DNA from: an uncultured Planctomycetaceae bacterium
Lineage (GTDB): Bacteria > Planctomycetota > Phycisphaerae > SM23-33
Assembly (NCBI GenBank): GCA_964427875.1
Contig: CAYRVX010000009.1
Span: 27,600 to 91,599, forward strand
Reading direction: 5' to 3'
DNA: 64,000 nt
Every line of letters begins with the position of its first letter. Within the stretch, counting starts at the first letter, position 1. The notes beneath the pieces were generated by a model that was given only the letters and a program-made list of their open reading frames with translations, did not search any database and was not told the origin of the DNA. A program made the position numbers and the translations under genes. Positions 6,263 through 58,530 of the stretch are shown piece after piece.

Positions 6263-6845
6263 CCTCGCCTACCATTCCATCTTCAGCGCGTACGGGTTCT
6301 GGCTCCCCAACGACCCCCGCGGATCCTGGTCGGACTTCGTCCGCAGTTGGGAGCTCTTCCGCTTCGGCAAGGCAACGAAGGTTGATCTCAGGCGGTCGGT
6401 GGCACGCGCCGAGCACGACGTCGCCCTCCGTCTCCGCGCGAAGCGGAGCTTGCGCTATCCCCCGGTCGCCTTCACCGGCCCCCAGGCCCGCGCGGTCGGC
6501 CGGGGCTTCGCCGAGGCCGTGGGCGAAGCGAACTACGTCGTCCACGCATGCTCGGTCCTGCCGGAGCACGTGCATCTGGTGATCGCCCGCCACCGGCGCA
6601 GTATTCAGCGGATCGTCGGACACCTCAAGGCGAGGGCGACGCAGCACCTGACGGCCGAGGGCCTGCATCCACTGACGGAGCATGCACGAGGCGACGGCAC
6701 CCTCCCTTCTCCCTGGGCGCGGCGGGGATGGAACGTGTACCTGGACGATCCCAAGCACCTGCGAAACGCCGTGCGGTACGTGGAGGCCAATCCGATCAGG
6801 GAGGGAAACCCGAGGCAGCGCTGGAGCTTTGTTACGCCGCTGTGA
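6249..6845 (+). CDS. REP-associated tyrosine transposase (RAYT; IS200-like Y1 HuH transposase)
   Basis: 198 aa with HuH motif (EHVHLVI) and conserved Tyr region (NAVRYVEANP). N-terminus MPTMILAYHSIFSAYGFW is typical of the Y1_Tnp fold. Flanked by REP doublets. Confidence 0.8.
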   Translation: MPTMILAYHSIFSAYGFWLPNDPRGSWSDFVRSWELFRFGKATKVDLRRSVARAEHDVALRLRAKRSLRYPPVAFTGPQARAVGRGFAEAVGEANYVVHACSVLPEHVHLVIARHRRSIQRIVGHLKARATQHLTAEGLHPLTEHARGDGTLPSPWARRGWNVYLDDPKHLRNAVRYVEANPIREGNPRQRWSFVTPL

Positions 6846-35637: not shown

Positions 35638-36843
35638 ATGGTCAGCAAGCGTGAGACGAAGAGGATGGCCCGACGGGAGGTCCTCAAGGGGGTCGCCGCG
35701 GCGACGTTCACCATCATGAGGCCGTCGCTGGTTCGCGGCGCCGAGGCCAACTCGAAGGTCGAGCTGGGCATGATCGGCTGCGGCGGACGCGGCAACTGGA
35801 TCATGAACCTCTTCAACAAGCACAAGGGCTACAAGGTGGTCGCGTGCGCGGACTACTTCAAGGACCGCGTCGACCGCTTCGGCGAGAAGTTCGGCGTGCC
35901 GGCGGACAGGCGGCACACCGGCCTGTCGAACCACGCCAAGCTGCTGGCGGGCAAGCTCGACGCGGTGGCGATCGAGAGCCCGCCGTACTTCCACCCGATC
36001 CAGGCCGCCGCGGCCGTCGAGGCCGGCAAGCACGTCTACGTCGCCAAGCCCATCGCCGTGGACGTGCCCGGCTGCACCACGATCGGCGAGGCGGGCAGGA
36101 AGGCCACCGCCAGGAAGCTCGTCTTCCTGGCCGACTTCCAGACCCGCGCGAGCGCGATCTACCAGGAGGCGGTCAAGCGCGTGCACAACGGCGACATCGG
36201 CCGCCTGGTCAACGGCGTGGCCGTCTACTACTGCGGCTTCATGTTCGGCAAGACGCGGCCCAAGGATCCCGAGGGCCGTCTGCGCAGGTGGTGCCTGGAC
36301 CAGGTGCTCTCCGGCGACATCATCACCGAGCAGAACATCCACGCGCTGGACGTGGCGTGCTGGATCATGGACGCCGATCCGATCAGCGCCGTCGGCACGG
36401 GCGGGCGGAAGCTGCGGACCGGCGACGGCGTGATCTACGACCACTTCAACCTGGTCTACACCTTCCCGAAGGACGTGCCGATCTCCTTCACCTCCCGCCA
36501 GTTCGGCCATGGGCAGGGCGACATCGGCTGCTGGGCCTTCGGCAGCCGCGGAACGATCGACACGCACTACTTCGGCACCGTGAAGGTCCTCGGCGACACC
36601 CCGTGCGCCGGCGGGAAGATGGCCAATCTCTTCACCCAGGGCGCCGTGAACAACATCGCCACGTTCCACAAGTCGATCACGGGAAGCGTGTACCACAACC
36701 CGACGGTCGCGCCCAGCGTGCGGAGCAACCTGACGACGATCCTCGGCCGCATGGCCGCCTACACCGGCAGGAAGGTCACCTGGGCGGAGATGATGAAGGC
36801 CAACGAGAAGCTCGACGCGAAGCTCGAAGGCCTGAAGGCGTGA
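35638..36843 (+). CDS. Gfo/Idh/MocA-family oxidoreductase with twin-arginine signal
   Basis: RREVLKGVAAATFTIM (Tat motif), GMIGCGGRG Rossmann motif, AKPIAV/EKP-type motif. Confidence 0.85.
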   Translation: MVSKRETKRMARREVLKGVAAATFTIMRPSLVRGAEANSKVELGMIGCGGRGNWIMNLFNKHKGYKVVACADYFKDRVDRFGEKFGVPADRRHTGLSNHAKLLAGKLDAVAIESPPYFHPIQAAAAVEAGKHVYVAKPIAVDVPGCTTIGEAGRKATARKLVFLADFQTRASAIYQEAVKRVHNGDIGRLVNGVAVYYCGFMFGKTRPKDPEGRLRRWCLDQVLSGDIITEQNIHALDVACWIMDADPISAVGTGGRKLRTGDGVIYDHFNLVYTFPKDVPISFTSRQFGHGQGDIGCWAFGSRGTIDTHYFGTVKVLGDTPCAGGKMANLFTQGAVNNIATFHKSITGSVYHNPTVAPSVRSNLTTILGRMAAYTGRKVTWAEMMKANEKLDAKLEGLKA

Positions 36844-36893
36844 TGCGCCCCGGCATCCGCTCCGATACGGACGAAGGCCTGGGAGGAAGCAAG

Positions 36894-39503
36894 ATGCCCT
36901 ATTGCGGATTGCGGATTGCGGATTGCGGATTCTCTGCGCTCGCGGTGACCGCGGCGATCCTGACGTGCTCGTGCCTCGCCGCCGGCGAAGACACCGAATC
37001 GCTCGGCCGGTGCGTGATCTCCGTCGGCTCCAAGGCGATCGACCCGAAGACACACGCCATCGTCACGCCGGAGAAGCCGACGGAGCAGGAGAGCTTCGCC
37101 GCCGAGGACCTCCGGGCGCAGCTCGAGAAGCTGACCGGCAAGGCGCCTTCAGTGGTGAGAGAGGGCGAGCTGGGCGGCAAGACGCCGATCGTCGTGGGCA
37201 AGTGCACGGCCCTGCTGAAGAAGCTCGGGGTGAAGATCGGCTTCGAGGCCCTCGGCGACGAGGGCATCGTCGTCAGGACCAGGGGCGACGCTCTTGTCCT
37301 CGCCGGCAACCGGCGCGGCGTGCTCTACGCCACGTACACGTTCCTGGAGGACTACTGCGGCTGCAAGTGGCTCACGCCCGACTGCACCGTGCTGCCGAAG
37401 AGCGGCCAGTTCCGGATCGCCGACCTCAACGTCCGCTACATCCCCCCGCTGGAGTACCGCTCGACCGACTACCCATGCTCGCGGCCGGCCGAGTGGGCCG
37501 TGCGAAACAAGATCAACGGCACGCAGACGCGGCTCGCCGAGAAGCACGGCGGGAAGATCGCCTACTCGCACTTCGTCCACACGTTCAACAGCATCCTGAA
37601 CCCGGCCGAGCACTTCGCCGAGCACCCGGAATACTTCTCCATGATCGACGGCAAGCGCGTCGGCAAGAGGACGCAACTGTGCCTTACCGACCCGAACGTG
37701 CTGGCCATCGCCAAGCAGACCGTGCGCCGGTGGATCGAGGCCGCCCCCGACGCCACGATCTTCAGCGTCTCCCAGAACGACTGGCACAACTACTGCCGCT
37801 GCCCGAGGTGCGAGGCGCTGGCCAGGAAGGAAGACTCACAGGCCGGGCCCCTGCTGCACTTCGTCAACGCCATCGCCGACGACATCGCCAAGGACTACCC
37901 CGACAAGCTCATCAGCACGCTGGCGTACCAGTACACGCGAAAGCCGCCGAGGCACGTCAGGCCCCGGCCGAACGTCTGCGTCCGCCTGTGCAGCATCGAG
38001 TGCTGCTTCGCGCACCCGCTGGACGTCTGCCCCACCAACCGCACCTTCGTGGACGACATCCGCAACTGGAACAGGATCTGCAACCGGCTGTACATCTGGG
38101 ACTACGTCATCAATTACGCCCACAGCGTTCAGCCGTTCCCCAACCTCCACGTGCTGGCGCCGAACATCCGCTTCTTCATCGCCCGCGGCGTGAAGGGCAT
38201 CTACGAGGAGGCGTGCTACTTCACGCCCGGCTCGGAGCTGGCCGAGCTGCGCACGTGGATCATGGCCAAGACGCTCTGGGACCCGGACTACGACACCGAC
38301 AAGGCGATCGACGAGTTCCTCGCCGGCTACTACGGCCCCGCGGCCGGGCCGCTGCGCAAGTACATCAACCTCATCCACAAGCAGGTCGCCGACCACGCCG
38401 ACTGGCACGCGAACATCTGGTCGCCCCCGACGGCGGCGTACCTCTCGAAGCGAGTCATCACGCGGTCGGCGAAGTACCTCGATGAGGCCGAGGCGGCCGT
38501 GAGGCACGACCCCGTCCTGCTGCGCCGCGTGCGGATCGCCCGCATGCCGGTCCAGTACGTGCAGATCATGACGGCCTCGCGGGGCTACCGCGCCGAGGGC
38601 GACGCGCTCGTCGCCGCCGAAGACGAGAAGGTCTCCGCCAGGATCGACCGCTTCGAGGCCACCGCGCGCAAGGCGGGGCTGAGGCTCGTCCGCGAACACC
38701 ACCAGCACGGCAACCTCGAGGCGTGGCTGAAGAAGGTCCGGCAGGCCCCGAAGGTCCCGATCGTCCGGCTGGAGAACGCCGGGCTGCGGCTCGCCGTCCT
38801 GCCGGGGATCGGCGGGCGCATCTGGCGGATGACCTACAGGCCCACCGGCCGGGACATCCTCAAGCGATATAAGGCCAGCGACGGCGGGGAGGTCCCCGAC
38901 GCCGGCGGCTACGAGGAGTATTCCCAGGGCGAGTACCGCTCGCCCGGCTGGCGGGAGAAGTTCCGCGTCGTGAAGAAGGATAAGGGGTCGGTCGCGCTGG
39001 AGGGGCGGCTGACGAACGGCCTGCGTCTGCGGCGGACGATCCGCCTGCCGGACGACGACGCGGTGGTCGAGATCCACTCGACGCTCACGAACGTCAGCAA
39101 GGGGCCGGCCCGAGCGTGCCTGCGGGCGCATCCGTGCTTCGCCGTCAGGGACGTGAGGAAGGCGGCCGTCCTGATCGGGCGGCCCGGCGGCGCGGTCCTC
39201 CGCAAGTCGCTGGACATCCCCGCGGACCGGAAGCAGGAGACCGACGAGCTCCTCAGCGGGAAGGACATGCCCGCCGGGCAGTGGACGCTTCTCGAACCGG
39301 CCGGGGCGTTGGAGATCACCTCGCGATTCGAGGCCGGGCAGGTCGCCCAGTGCCTGCTGAACCGCAGCATCCCCGACGGCCGCGTCAACCTGGAGCTTTA
39401 CACGAAAGGCGTCGTCCTGAAGCCCGGCGAGTCGATCGAGCTCAAGCACAGCATCGCCGTCCGGAGGGCGCAGAGAGACACGGCGGCCAAGGCCGCCCGC
39501 TGA
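36894..39503 (+). CDS. secreted DUF4838-like glycoside-hydrolase-associated protein
   Basis: RBS ggagg 8 nt upstream of the atg. Signal peptide. Conserved Cys-rich and aromatic blocks (NDWHNYCRCPRCEA..., IWDYVINY...) typical of DUF4838 proteins in CAZyme loci. The track ORF begins at 35844, but that portion overlaps the Gfo gene in another frame. Confidence 0.55.
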   Translation: MPYCGLRIADCGFSALAVTAAILTCSCLAAGEDTESLGRCVISVGSKAIDPKTHAIVTPEKPTEQESFAAEDLRAQLEKLTGKAPSVVREGELGGKTPIVVGKCTALLKKLGVKIGFEALGDEGIVVRTRGDALVLAGNRRGVLYATYTFLEDYCGCKWLTPDCTVLPKSGQFRIADLNVRYIPPLEYRSTDYPCSRPAEWAVRNKINGTQTRLAEKHGGKIAYSHFVHTFNSILNPAEHFAEHPEYFSMIDGKRVGKRTQLCLTDPNVLAIAKQTVRRWIEAAPDATIFSVSQNDWHNYCRCPRCEALARKEDSQAGPLLHFVNAIADDIAKDYPDKLISTLAYQYTRKPPRHVRPRPNVCVRLCSIECCFAHPLDVCPTNRTFVDDIRNWNRICNRLYIWDYVINYAHSVQPFPNLHVLAPNIRFFIARGVKGIYEEACYFTPGSELAELRTWIMAKTLWDPDYDTDKAIDEFLAGYYGPAAGPLRKYINLIHKQVADHADWHANIWSPPTAAYLSKRVITRSAKYLDEAEAAVRHDPVLLRRVRIARMPVQYVQIMTASRGYRAEGDALVAAEDEKVSARIDRFEATARKAGLRLVREHHQHGNLEAWLKKVRQAPKVPIVRLENAGLRLAVLPGIGGRIWRMTYRPTGRDILKRYKASDGGEVPDAGGYEEYSQGEYRSPGWREKFRVVKKDKGSVALEGRLTNGLRLRRTIRLPDDDAVVEIHSTLTNVSKGPARACLRAHPCFAVRDVRKAAVLIGRPGGAVLRKSLDIPADRKQETDELLSGKDMPAGQWTLLEPAGALEITSRFEAGQVAQCLLNRSIPDGRVNLELYTKGVVLKPGESIELKHSIAVRRAQRDTAAKAAR
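36901..36931. repeat. heptanucleotide tandem repeat (ATTGCGG)x4.4 inside the first 13 codons of the downstream gene
   Basis: attgcgg attgcgg attgcgg attgcgg att. Unit length is not a multiple of 3. Confidence 0.9.
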
Positions 39504-39866
39504 ACGGGCGTGGCCGCCGTTGGTCGGCGTGGAAACAAAATTATTCAAAAAATGTCAAAATAGTTGAAAACCAAGCGGCGTTTCGTGTGTATAATAAGGG
39601 TCGGAGGCACGGTTGTGGGGTGGCTTGATCGGACGAGCCCAAAGCCCAGTGGAAGACGCCATAAGTCTTTTTACGAAACAAAGCCATTTTTCGCCGGATC
39701 GCCTGTAAGACCCTATTTGACAAGCACTTGCAGCGGACCGCCCGGGATTTTGCCTTTGGCGGGATCTGCTCGCCGGAATCCGGCCTGGCGGCGGAGCGGC
39801 CGGCCCAGCCGCGGGGACTTGCGTCTATAAGAGATTCACCTATATCGGCTTAAGCGCCAGAGTCGT

Positions 39867-57505: not shown

Positions 57506-57988
57506 ATGAGCAGGGATCAGGCCATCACGGCCGGGGGGAATCAGCGGGCGTTCAGCCTGCTGGAGATCGTGCTCGTGTTGGCCGTCTTCGTGGTTCTGGC
57601 GGCGATTGCCGCGCCGCGTTACGGGCGCGCCGCGGCCCGGTATCGCGCGGATGCAGCCGCCCGGAGGATCGTATCGGATATGGCCCTGACCCGCAAATCA
57701 GCCCGATCCGCCGGCGCCCGGCGGGCCCTGAGCTTCTCGGTGGAGTCCGACGAATACTCCGTCGCCGGGATGGCCGACCTGAGGGACTCCTCGGCCGATT
57801 ACCGCGTGGACCTGAAGGCCCGGCCGTACGAGGCCCGCATCCTCTCCGCCGATTTCGGCGGCGACGCAGAGCTTGTCTTCGACGGCTACGGGGCCCCCGA
57901 CAGTGGCGGCCGCGTCCGCGTGCAGGTCGGCGAGGCCGTCCGCACCGTCCTGTTCGACGCCAATACATGCGAGGCTGCCGTCCAATGA
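57506..57988 (+). CDS. minor pseudopilin (GspH-like)
   Basis: QRAFSLLEIVLVLAVFVVLAAIAAP prepilin-type N-terminus. 160 aa. Confidence 0.7.
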   Translation: MSRDQAITAGGNQRAFSLLEIVLVLAVFVVLAAIAAPRYGRAAARYRADAAARRIVSDMALTRKSARSAGARRALSFSVESDEYSVAGMADLRDSSADYRVDLKARPYEARILSADFGGDAELVFDGYGAPDSGGRVRVQVGEAVRTVLFDANTCEAAVQ

Positions 57989-58530
57989 GGGCTCACGGCG
58001 CCGGACATCGCCGCCGGCCAAGCGCCCGGCAAAGCGCGACGGGGCACACGCTGATCGAGCTGCTCCTCAGCGTGGCGATCATGGCCGTCCTGATGGGCGC
58101 GATGGTCATTTCTCTCGCCGTCGCCTCGCGCGCCCTCGACGACGGTGCCGGCCCGGCCGGGCAGACCCGCCGCGCCGCCGGGATCGTCGAGGACATGGAC
58201 GCCGATCTGGCCATGGCCCTTTCGTTCACGGAGCGGACGCCTCAGGCCGTGACCTTCACCGTGCCCGACCGCGACGGGGACGCAAACAGCGAGACGATCC
58301 GCTACTCGTGGACCGGCCCGGACGACGGGCGCCTGCTCCGGCGGGTCAACGGCGGCCCGGCGGTCGCCATCGCCCAGGACGTGCGCCACTTCAACCTGAC
58401 CTATCAGCTCAAGACGATTGCCGCAAGCCAGGACAAGGACGAAAAGGGCAAGAAGGACAAAGACAAGGGCAAGAAGGACAAAGACAAGGACAAGGATGAC
58501 AAGGGGGGAAAGAAGAAGGGACATCACTGA
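57967..58530 (+). CDS. minor pseudopilin-like protein with Lys/Asp-rich C-terminal tail
   Basis: GHTLIELLLSVAIMAVLMG (prepilin-type). C-terminus KDKDEKGKKDKDKGKKDKDKDKDDKGGKKKGHH. Confidence 0.6.
   Translation: MRGCRPMRAHGAGHRRRPSARQSATGHTLIELLLSVAIMAVLMGAMVISLAVASRALDDGAGPAGQTRRAAGIVEDMDADLAMALSFTERTPQAVTFTVPDRDGDANSETIRYSWTGPDDGRLLRRVNGGPAVAIAQDVRHFNLTYQLKTIAASQDKDEKGKKDKDKGKKDKDKDKDDKGGKKKGHH

Follow-up and report, generated by a model that had tools for sequence, protein, structure and literature searches.

A heptanucleotide array in the signal-peptide codons of a DUF4838 gene and its relation to a cross-phylum family of GCGGATT repeats

A tandem repeat whose unit is not a multiple of three nucleotides, standing directly behind the start codon of a gene for a secreted protein, raises the question of whether the gene is switched on and off by changes in the number of units. 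Such a repeat is found in a 64,000-nucleotide stretch of DNA (the whole of it referred to here as the window) from contig CAYRVX010000009.1 of an uncultured Planctomycetaceae bacterium (assembly GCA_964427875.1), in which four ATTGCGG units occupy leader codons of a gene for a DUF4838 protein. The first-pass annotation of the window, made from the letters alone, took them for a candidate phase-variation switch. Our analysis favours a different answer, namely that the repeat is probably a canonical (GCGGATT)n array of the gene-boundary kind, whose translation yields the n-region of a signal peptide. The cross-phylum family to which such arrays belong is a more interesting result than the single locus itself.

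The array and the start codon of the DUF4838 gene

The array is 31 nt long and reads ATT(GCGGATT)4 or, equivalently, (ATTGCGG)4 followed by ATT. Positions 36894-36935 consist of ATG, CCC, a single T, the four ATTGCGG units, ATT and CTCT; they are preceded by GGGAGGAAGCAAG and followed by GCG. Tandem Repeats Finder (TRF) reports the segment 36901-36931 with period 7, 4.4 copies, 100% matches and a score of 62, the highest of any short-period array in the window, so that the initial description of four perfect units and a partial fifth, beginning in codon 3 of the gene, was accurate. Perfect period-7 runs of at least 31 nt are expected by chance only about 4.4e-9 times given the base composition of the window, and the longest such run in 100 first-order Markov simulations measured 21 nt against the 31 nt observed; the array is therefore real and not a product of chance. 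It is the only GCGGATT heptamer array in the window. No non-triplet array longer than 15 nt occurs elsewhere in the 64 kb, the one other period-7 array of at least 15 nt being exactly 15 nt long. The repeat-derived peptides that had been noticed in antisense open reading frames (ORFs) are likewise present, as SAIRNPQSAIRNPQ in mechanical minus-strand ORFs. The features on which the argument depends are the following.

35638-36843, forward strand: gene for a Gfo/Idh/MocA oxidoreductase (GFO, assigned by Pfam), upstream of the DUF4838 gene and co-directional with it; stop codon at 36841-36843
36843-36845, forward strand: upstream in-frame ATG overlapping the GFO TGA; start of the DUF4838 protein in public record P0001 (886 aa), less likely the real one
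36850-36860, forward strand: CCGGCATCCGC, a weak 11-mer resembling the CCGCAAT (C-type) orientation and complementary to array units at 9 of 11 positions; probably a chance match, to which folding lends no support
36881-36896, forward strand: Shine-Dalgarno-like GGGAGGAAG (36881-36889) and the ATG at 36894, recognised by motif and by conservation in ortholog L183
36894-39503, forward strand: gene for a secreted DUF4838/GH67N-like protein of 869 aa (Pfam DUF4838, 3.1e-106; Glyco_hydro_67N, 2.4e-06)
36901-36931, forward strand: the heptamer array (31 nt; direct reading and TRF)
36909-36911, forward strand: in-frame TTG inside the array, aligned with the Met of array-less orthologs and with the in-array ATG of ortholog L184
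36933-36983, forward strand: hydrophobic core and likely signal-peptide cleavage region (SALAVTAAILTCSCLAA before and GED after the presumed cut), from ortholog alignments

Whether the array is translated depends on the choice of start codon. We infer that ATG 36894, from which the protein begins MPYCGLRIADCGF..., is the best-supported start of the DUF4838 gene and that the array is translated, since GGGAGGAAG lies at good spacing 7 nt upstream of it, the arrangement GGGAGGA-N6-ATG is also kept in L183, and a further ortholog, L185, lacks a Met at the ancestral position. Shine-Dalgarno-like motifs are frequent before starts across the window. The public start, 51 nt farther upstream, would add 17 residues that have no counterpart in the orthologs. 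A start upstream of the repeat, as presupposed by the idea of a switch, is thus favoured.

An alternative is that translation really begins inside the array, at TTG 36909, or behind it, at GTG 36945, the only in-frame start codon on its 3' side; most of the array would then be 5' leader, and shifts of frame would be irrelevant. TTG 36909 does stand at the ancestral Met position, aligned with the Met of the array-less starts MRYAD, MRHAG and MRQAE and with the in-array ATG of L184, and the peptide read from it, MRIADCGFSALAV..., has an ortholog-like M-R-x n-region. Moreover, the unit contains TTG, and as long as there are at least three units one TTG stands in frame, 21 nt ahead of the TTC codon. 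Neither TTG 36909 nor GTG 36945, however, has a Shine-Dalgarno motif nearby, whereas the spacing of GGGAGGAAG to ATG 36894 is ideal and conserved; use of GTG 36945 would remove the charged n-region; and in L185 the place of the ancestral Met is taken by GGG, which forces initiation farther upstream and translation of its array. We consider a start inside or behind the array very unlikely.

A separate observation concerns the composition of the unit. The window unit carries TTG in all frames, and the AATGCGG triplicate of L184 (2001-2045) carries ATG in each of the three frames, both arrays supplying in this way a start codon that is independent of frame.

With ATG 36894 as the start, the leader bearing the array would be a signal peptide, as is suggested by its alignment with orthologs that have M[RK]xx, a hydrophobic region and G.CVI. 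The conserved mature part begins with GRCVI, near position 37005, in the ortholog alignments.

Unit number, reading frame and gene context

Modelling of the unit number confirms the earlier statement that the gain or loss of one unit shifts the frame of the ATG-initiated ORF. With one, four or seven units both ATG 36894 and ATG 36843 are in frame, three or six units leave stubs of 15 or 22 aa, and two, five or eight units produce nonsense ORFs of about 530 aa (532 aa for a one-unit change). The locus thus has a tandem unit that is not a multiple of three, inside a reading frame and downstream of a start codon, which is the architecture of a contingency locus. According to this explanation, slipped-strand mispairing would move ATG 36894 in and out of frame and so switch the DUF4838 protein on and off (or between high and low levels, via the in-array TTG) within a population. 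The position of the array, in leader codons directly after an ATG led by a Shine-Dalgarno motif, and the drastic outcome of a one-unit change (a 15-aa or a 532-aa product) speak in its favour. The long tract and the several similar loci that would accompany such a system are missing, with four units here and a single further array of 15 nt in 64 kb, and in contingency loci generally a high slippage rate is not expected with only four units.

Comparison among relatives also goes against a switch. The four units are present in all three assemblies of the same strain, namely the window and two JGI contigs from two other samples (L001 and L002, 99.98-100% identical to the window), an equal count from three sources. 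Searches for further strains by exact-protein look-up returned no match for the 869-aa form and only the two near-identical JGI contigs for the 886-aa form, the GFO protein matched the same JGI contig and the GH95 neighbour matched nothing, and metagenome pattern scans with the left flank and with the right flank yielded 0 matches each.

More distant relatives are numerous, the DUF4838 protein having 7872 homologs. When the N-termini of the 120 best of them were screened, three looked array-coded (L183, L184 and L185). The gene order FGE-sulfatase, GFO, DUF4838 is kept in five other loci (L183-L187), three of which have an array at the same junction as the window:

Window: N-terminus MPYCG-LRIADCGF-SALAV; array of 31 nt, perfect
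L183: N-terminus MLHCG-LRTADCGF; array of 31 nt with 5 substitutions, and the same GGGAGGA-N6-ATG upstream
L184: N-terminus MNDCG-MRNAECGL; array ATT(GCGGAAT)3GCGGATT, 31 nt, starting 3 nt after the GFO stop
L185: N-terminus ...TDG-RIADCGL; array of 2.4 perfect units

All four arrays share one frame relative to the hydrophobic core, and no out-of-frame (OFF) allele was found among the window, L001, L002 and L183-L185. The length of 31 nt is common to the window and two of the three array-bearing orthologs, L184 and the degenerate L183; the latter array cannot slip and still keeps both length and frame, which is not what switching would lead one to expect. At the nucleotide level the arrays of this locus are identical at 26/31 and 28/31 positions, compared with a mean of 59-67% over the junction.

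Other orthologs do without an array. The syntenic L186 and L187 start with MRYADYLAALV and MRHAGQMAVLA, and L124 (P0002), which lacks upstream synteny as well, starts with MRQAECPAALV; these MRxA[DE/G] starts align with the array-coded [L/M]-R-x-A-[D/E]-C (LRIAD in the window). The window and L186 proteins can be aligned on M-x-Y ahead of the array and on [F/Y]-x-A-x-x-V-T behind it, and the window shows a net surplus of 21 nt, that is, three units, so that the frame is kept. Neighbour-joining (NJ) trees unite L183-L185 in one clade and group the window with the array-less L186 and L124 (identity of 84.7% to L186 for GFO and of 80.5% to L124 for DUF4838). It follows from this grouping that the array would either have been gained twice at the same spot, or be old and have been lost several times. 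An origin in situ from the GCGGACT of L186, by local expansion, and an origin by insertion are both compatible with the nucleotide alignment, which allows two registers because of the repeat. Upstream of the array-less gene P0002, in a segment not syntenic with the window (L124:1150-1335), we also noticed a duplicated stretch of about 70 nt (...CTTTGTGGCAAATGAAGTCTTGTCTTCTCTTCGCCTCCGTGGCCTCTGTGGC...) together with 9-nt repeats (TTCTTTGTG).

The course of events that we favour for the window gene can be outlined as follows. The array, sitting in the short GFO/DUF4838 junction just past the DUF4838 start codon, would be translated in one fixed frame (CGLRIADCG) as the signal-peptide n-region, whose only arginine it would supply. 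Relative to the nearest array-less relatives (MRYADY..., MRQAEC...), the gene would have gained a net 21 nt, three units, in frame, and another ortholog clade would have retained this architecture in a copy that is either independent or older. Its present role would be to encode a tolerated n-region and not to switch the gene. Slippage may nevertheless occur, and a one-unit change would put the Shine-Dalgarno-led ATG in the wrong frame, with the weak in-array TTG as the only start remaining; we thus see slippage at this array as a possible liability or source of a rare variant and not as a demonstrated mechanism.

Some features of the surroundings deserve mention. The GFO protein (window 35638-35760) starts with MVSKRETKRMARREVLKGVAAATF..., a twin-arginine-like leader, which suggests a periplasmic oxidoreductase encoded in an operon with the FGE-sulfatase-domain protein and the DUF4838 protein, with GH95 convergent. 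Where the DUF4838 and GH95 genes converge they are separated by a 360-nt spacer (39500-39860), in which the GC content falls to 0.50-0.60 against a window mean of 0.68. Far from the array, at 58430-58504, an imperfect tandem repeat of period 21/15/9 and of the AAGGACAAG... type scores up to 97 in TRF; it occupies the 3' end of ORF 57967-58530 and would encode a Lys/Asp-rich tail.

A cross-phylum family of GCGGATT arrays

The array had been called unusual for its taxonomic and GC context, and this was not borne out, the GC content across its occurrences ranging from 39 to 73%. A scan for (ATTGCGG)3 on both strands of 596 Gb of genome sequence, with one genome per species, gave at least 120 genome stretches (L003-L122; the source genome of the window is not among the 120 listed), about 0.3 being expected for a random 21-mer, and a further 58 viral stretches came from IMG/VR (L125-L182). 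The genome matches listed span at least seven phyla and a GC content of 42-73%, and include Acidobacteriota, Planctomycetota, Verrucomicrobiota, Gemmatimonadota, Chloroflexota, Bacteroidota (Saprospiraceae), Armatimonadota and others (metagenome-assembled genomes, MAGs). Some viral or proviral contigs are rich in arrays, with seven (ATTGCGG)3 matches in 8.8 kb of L162 (IMGVR_UViG_3300050015_000263) and six in 13.3 kb of L159. In 874 kb of array-flanking sequence, period-7 arrays number 187, against 0-8 for each of the periods 5, 6 and 8-11, and the other heptamers found there are mostly one-base variants (CCGCATT, CGGATTT, GGATTTT, CGCGGAT). Within the literature that could be searched, no relevant paper contained the heptamer or its encoded peptides, and the family appears to be undescribed.

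Members of the family are strikingly uniform in size. The lengths of perfect arrays peak at 19, 25-26 and chiefly 31-33 nt, corresponding to GATT(GCGGATT)k with k up to 4, and drop sharply above 34 nt in both the genome and the viral collections, nanopore assemblies included. An assembly artefact behind the cap at about 32 nt was rejected, as the sizes recur in nanopore-based MFD contigs and different species agree at orthologous sites. The usual boundaries are GATT/ATT... on one side and ...GCGGATT(G) on the other. In its unit, its boundaries and its length, which falls within the range of about 25-33 nt, the window array agrees with these members and, judged by its sequence, is of canonical family size and phase.

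This uniformity extends to orthologous sites. At two such sites in two Pyrinomonadaceae species the array length is kept exactly, and a singleton array of this family is identical at 31/32 nt between species, compared with about 70% in flanks that also contain indels. Paralogous arrays, on the other hand, differ in length (18 vs 33, 19 vs 31 and 29 vs 19 nt), a point in favour of the contingency explanation, which has against it the constancy of length across species and the clustering at a fixed size. In a Phycisphaerales MAG (L035), the 32-nt variant ATTGCGGATTGCGGATTTCGGATTGCGGATTG, marked by one and the same internal G-to-T change, has three copies within 8 kb (1143-1175, and minus-strand copies at 6606 and 7442, in coordinates of the G orientation), an indication that whole elements are copied instead of arising by local slippage.

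The arrays are also positioned in a regular manner with respect to genes, as judged from crude gene calls in the fetched loci (longest ORF plus GC3) that were checked with Pfam in 20 cases. Arrays reading ATTGCGG in the sense of the gene (G-type) favour gene ends: 17 of the 35 located near one start within -2 to +3 nt of the stop, and in genomes and viral contigs taken together 43 arrays have their start between -2 and +9 nt relative to a stop. The stop codon is often formed by the array junction itself, through T joined to GATTGCGG or TA joined to ATTGCGG. All ten tested ORFs upstream of G-type arrays proved real by Pfam, including those for DnaA, ClpB, acyl-CoA dehydrogenase and PilT. Examples of arrays at stop codons are L048:4986-4989, L117:2566-2570, L022:3172-3174 and L049:2209-2212, and the genes concerned include those for DnaA, PIG-L, acyl-CoA dehydrogenase and mannose-1-phosphate guanylyltransferase. 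Arrays reading CCGCAAT in the gene sense (C-type) prevail at gene starts, with 37 cases vs 14 of the G-type by the crude calls, and Pfam confirmed a position at or within a gene start in ten of them. Some C-type arrays leave 2-15 nt between their end and the ATG (UDP-glucose dehydrogenase, HisF, LpxA, ribosomal protein L16), others occupy the first codons (Gfo/Idh/MocA, ROK, GT4, HycI), and others again follow signal peptides (DUF1501). In the TruB pseudouridine synthase of L108 (900-1688, minus strand) a 33-nt array forms an in-frame insert of 11 residues, SIRNPQSAIRN, between KRLTG and KVGHAGTLDP.

An inverted partner accompanies 34% of the family arrays. The loops of these doublets are unique and their polarity is strict, the partner lying downstream of the G-strand arm in a ratio of 40:1 in genomes and 7:0 in viral contigs (47 vs 1 overall). 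One doublet at a gene junction is conserved in two Pyrinomonadaceae species (L014:3775-3870 and L021:4480-4575): its G-arm follows the upstream gene, its loop includes AAGGGAGAG and the ATG of a HycI-type hydrogenase protease gene, and its C-arm encodes residues 4-10 of that protease. The window array, which is G-type with respect to both flanking genes, fits the family's location at gene boundaries, although its distance of 57 nt from the GFO stop lies in the tail of the family distribution. It has no inverted partner within the window, the sole inverted match being the weak 9/11 11-mer listed above.

This regularity invites the explanation that the array is a cis-acting nucleic-acid element, kept for a role of its DNA or RNA at the gene boundary, with the coding of the n-region secondary. 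Possible roles include a platform for a protein that would read four to five heptads, with GGA recurring every 7 nt, control of translational initiation or of the coupling of GFO with DUF4838, and mRNA processing or stability. A single unit shared across phyla, the cap at about 32 nt, G-arm-first doublets, and the preference of G-type arrays for stops and of C-type arrays for starts are all hard to explain by neutral slippage. To this can be added the better conservation of arrays than of their flanks, both in Pyrinomonadaceae and at the present locus, the conserved doublet with a Shine-Dalgarno motif and ATG of the HycI protease gene in its loop, and the L184 array, which with its 3 nt from the GFO stop occupies the canonical family position. 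Set against this, neither a binding protein nor an RNA family or structure came to light: an Rfam search of 36500-37300 had no relevant match at E <= 10, and the RNA fold of 36860-36990 was no better than shuffles (z = 0.71). The array-less L186, L187 and L124 work in an operon laid out in the same way, and the window array neither abuts the upstream stop nor has an inverted partner in the window. We regard a cis-acting role as possible though doubtful for the window array.

Several more specific candidates were rejected. A structured RNA or terminator at the locus was dismissed given nothing but noise from Rfam, the unremarkable fold, the lack of any promoter-like or terminator-like site in 36400-37200, and the weak 9/11 11-mer as the sole inverted match. 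For the family, Rfam gave no match at the gathering score in ten array-rich loci besides two tRNAs; a conserved insertion target is contradicted by flanks with only mild T enrichment at -4 to -2, a conserved miniature inverted-repeat transposable element (MITE) by the unique doublet loops, and intrinsic terminators by doublets that are T-rich on their 5' sides and not on their 3' sides.

A bolder proposal, to which we would give limited credence, is that (GCGGATT)n arrays are a cross-phylum, strand-polar boundary element limited in size to about 32 nt and made or maintained by a dedicated sequence-specific process (a protein reading four to five heptads, or templated copying) instead of generic slippage. 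The window copy would then have been installed at canonical size, with three additional units in one in-frame step, and again independently in a second clade of the same operon.

The window locus and known repeat systems

Taken together, the comparative data speak against an actively switching tract, because the count is the same in three assemblies, 31 nt are found in two of three orthologs, the degenerate L183 array stays in frame, no OFF allele was seen, the family has a fixed size, and its arrays lie in or beside housekeeping genes (DnaA, L16, HisF, LpxA, TruB), where switching would be senseless. We thus judge the contingency explanation unlikely, and the suggestion of a switch was not sustained. 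Our preference, held with moderate confidence, is for a canonical gene-boundary array translated as the signal-peptide n-region, though several observations fit it poorly. The units of the window array are perfectly identical while those of L183 have decayed, and the same T-to-A change is present in three L184 units; the perfection of the former and the concerted change of the latter point to ongoing turnover of units by slippage or conversion, passing through out-of-frame states. Such turnover on evolutionary time scales, to be read from the homogenised units as well as from the differing counts of paralogs, counts in favour of the contingency explanation; rare frame-shifted variants must consequently arise, and a switch operating at low frequency is conceivable. 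The stronger conservation of arrays than of flanks hints at a nucleotide-level function beyond that of a permissive n-region. A G-type array in the sense strand next to a gene start belongs to a minority class (the 14 vs 37 from crude gene calls), and only one array occurs in the 64-kb window.

For this gene the outcome is mostly deflationary: what looks like a contingency tract would be a conserved in-frame part of a signal peptide, and the locus by itself is an ordinary, if neat, simple repeat in leader-peptide codons. Architecture alone should not lead annotation pipelines, or scans for phase-variable genes, to label such tracts as switches. If, however, a shared binding factor or copying mechanism does exist, the arrays would represent a widespread and as yet unstudied level of organisation at the gene boundaries of soil and sediment bacteria, and also a source of short in-frame protein insertions, such as the 11 residues in TruB.

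Translational phase variation by repeats in leader codons is known from the CTCTT repeats of Neisseria opa and the CAAT repeats of Haemophilus lic1; the hmw genes of H. influenzae have 7-bp repeats on their upstream side. A summary of phase variation by simple repeats is given in PMC4679880. The window array resembles such loci in that a non-triplet unit follows immediately on the start codon of a gene for a secreted protein, and in that adding or removing one unit shifts the frame. Unlike them, it has four units, with no polymorphism of the count in three assemblies and no OFF frame across orthologs, and it belongs to an environmental, high-GC, probably planctomycete genome and not to a host-adapted pathogen. 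It differs also in that the same array is found at housekeeping genes and in 5' and 3' untranslated positions in many phyla, and in that its in-array TTG is independent of frame.

The REP, BIME and REPIN elements of Proteobacteria are lineage-specific palindromes tied to RAYT transposases. Like these, GCGGATT elements are about 30 nt long, dispersed at gene ends and often arranged in inverted pairs able to form hairpins, and identical variant copies can occupy several sites of one genome (L035). The GCGGATT element is, in contrast, a tandem heptamer identical across phyla, its doublets have unique loops, and the window copy is a singleton inside a coding sequence, lacking the inverted partner that about a third of the family possesses.

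Heptamer repeats are also known in cyanobacteria as STRR sequences. Mrazek et al. (2007), as represented in PMC4679880, described heptanucleotide 'long simple sequence repeats' and a general excess of heptamers in large genomes of non-pathogens. Period 7 is likewise by far the commonest among the array-bearing loci examined here, and the arrays are mostly intergenic. What distinguishes the GCGGATT family from the repeats of these surveys, as far as that account of them goes, is a single unit common to different phyla, in arrays whose size and polarity are fixed.

Among published repeats, the closest analogue is the TAACTGA heptamer, which forms direct repeats of 2-6 tandem copies at many loci per genome in marine Beggiatoaceae, Cyanobacteria and some Bacteroidetes (MacGregor 2015, PMC4679880). 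These repeats lie near start codons at gene boundaries with a bias in orientation and show indels in 7-nt steps between strains; their function is unknown, and a post-transcriptional binding site has been proposed (PMC4679880). Both families thus consist of one heptamer in short tandem sets, found at many loci in distant phyla and at gene boundaries. Since the unit and the phyla are different, the GCGGATT arrays are an analogue of the TAACTGA repeats and not the same family, and they differ from them further in using both orientations with opposite preferences for gene ends (G-type after stops, C-type at starts), in their frequent polar inverted doublets, in their cap at about 32 nt, and in being often translated.

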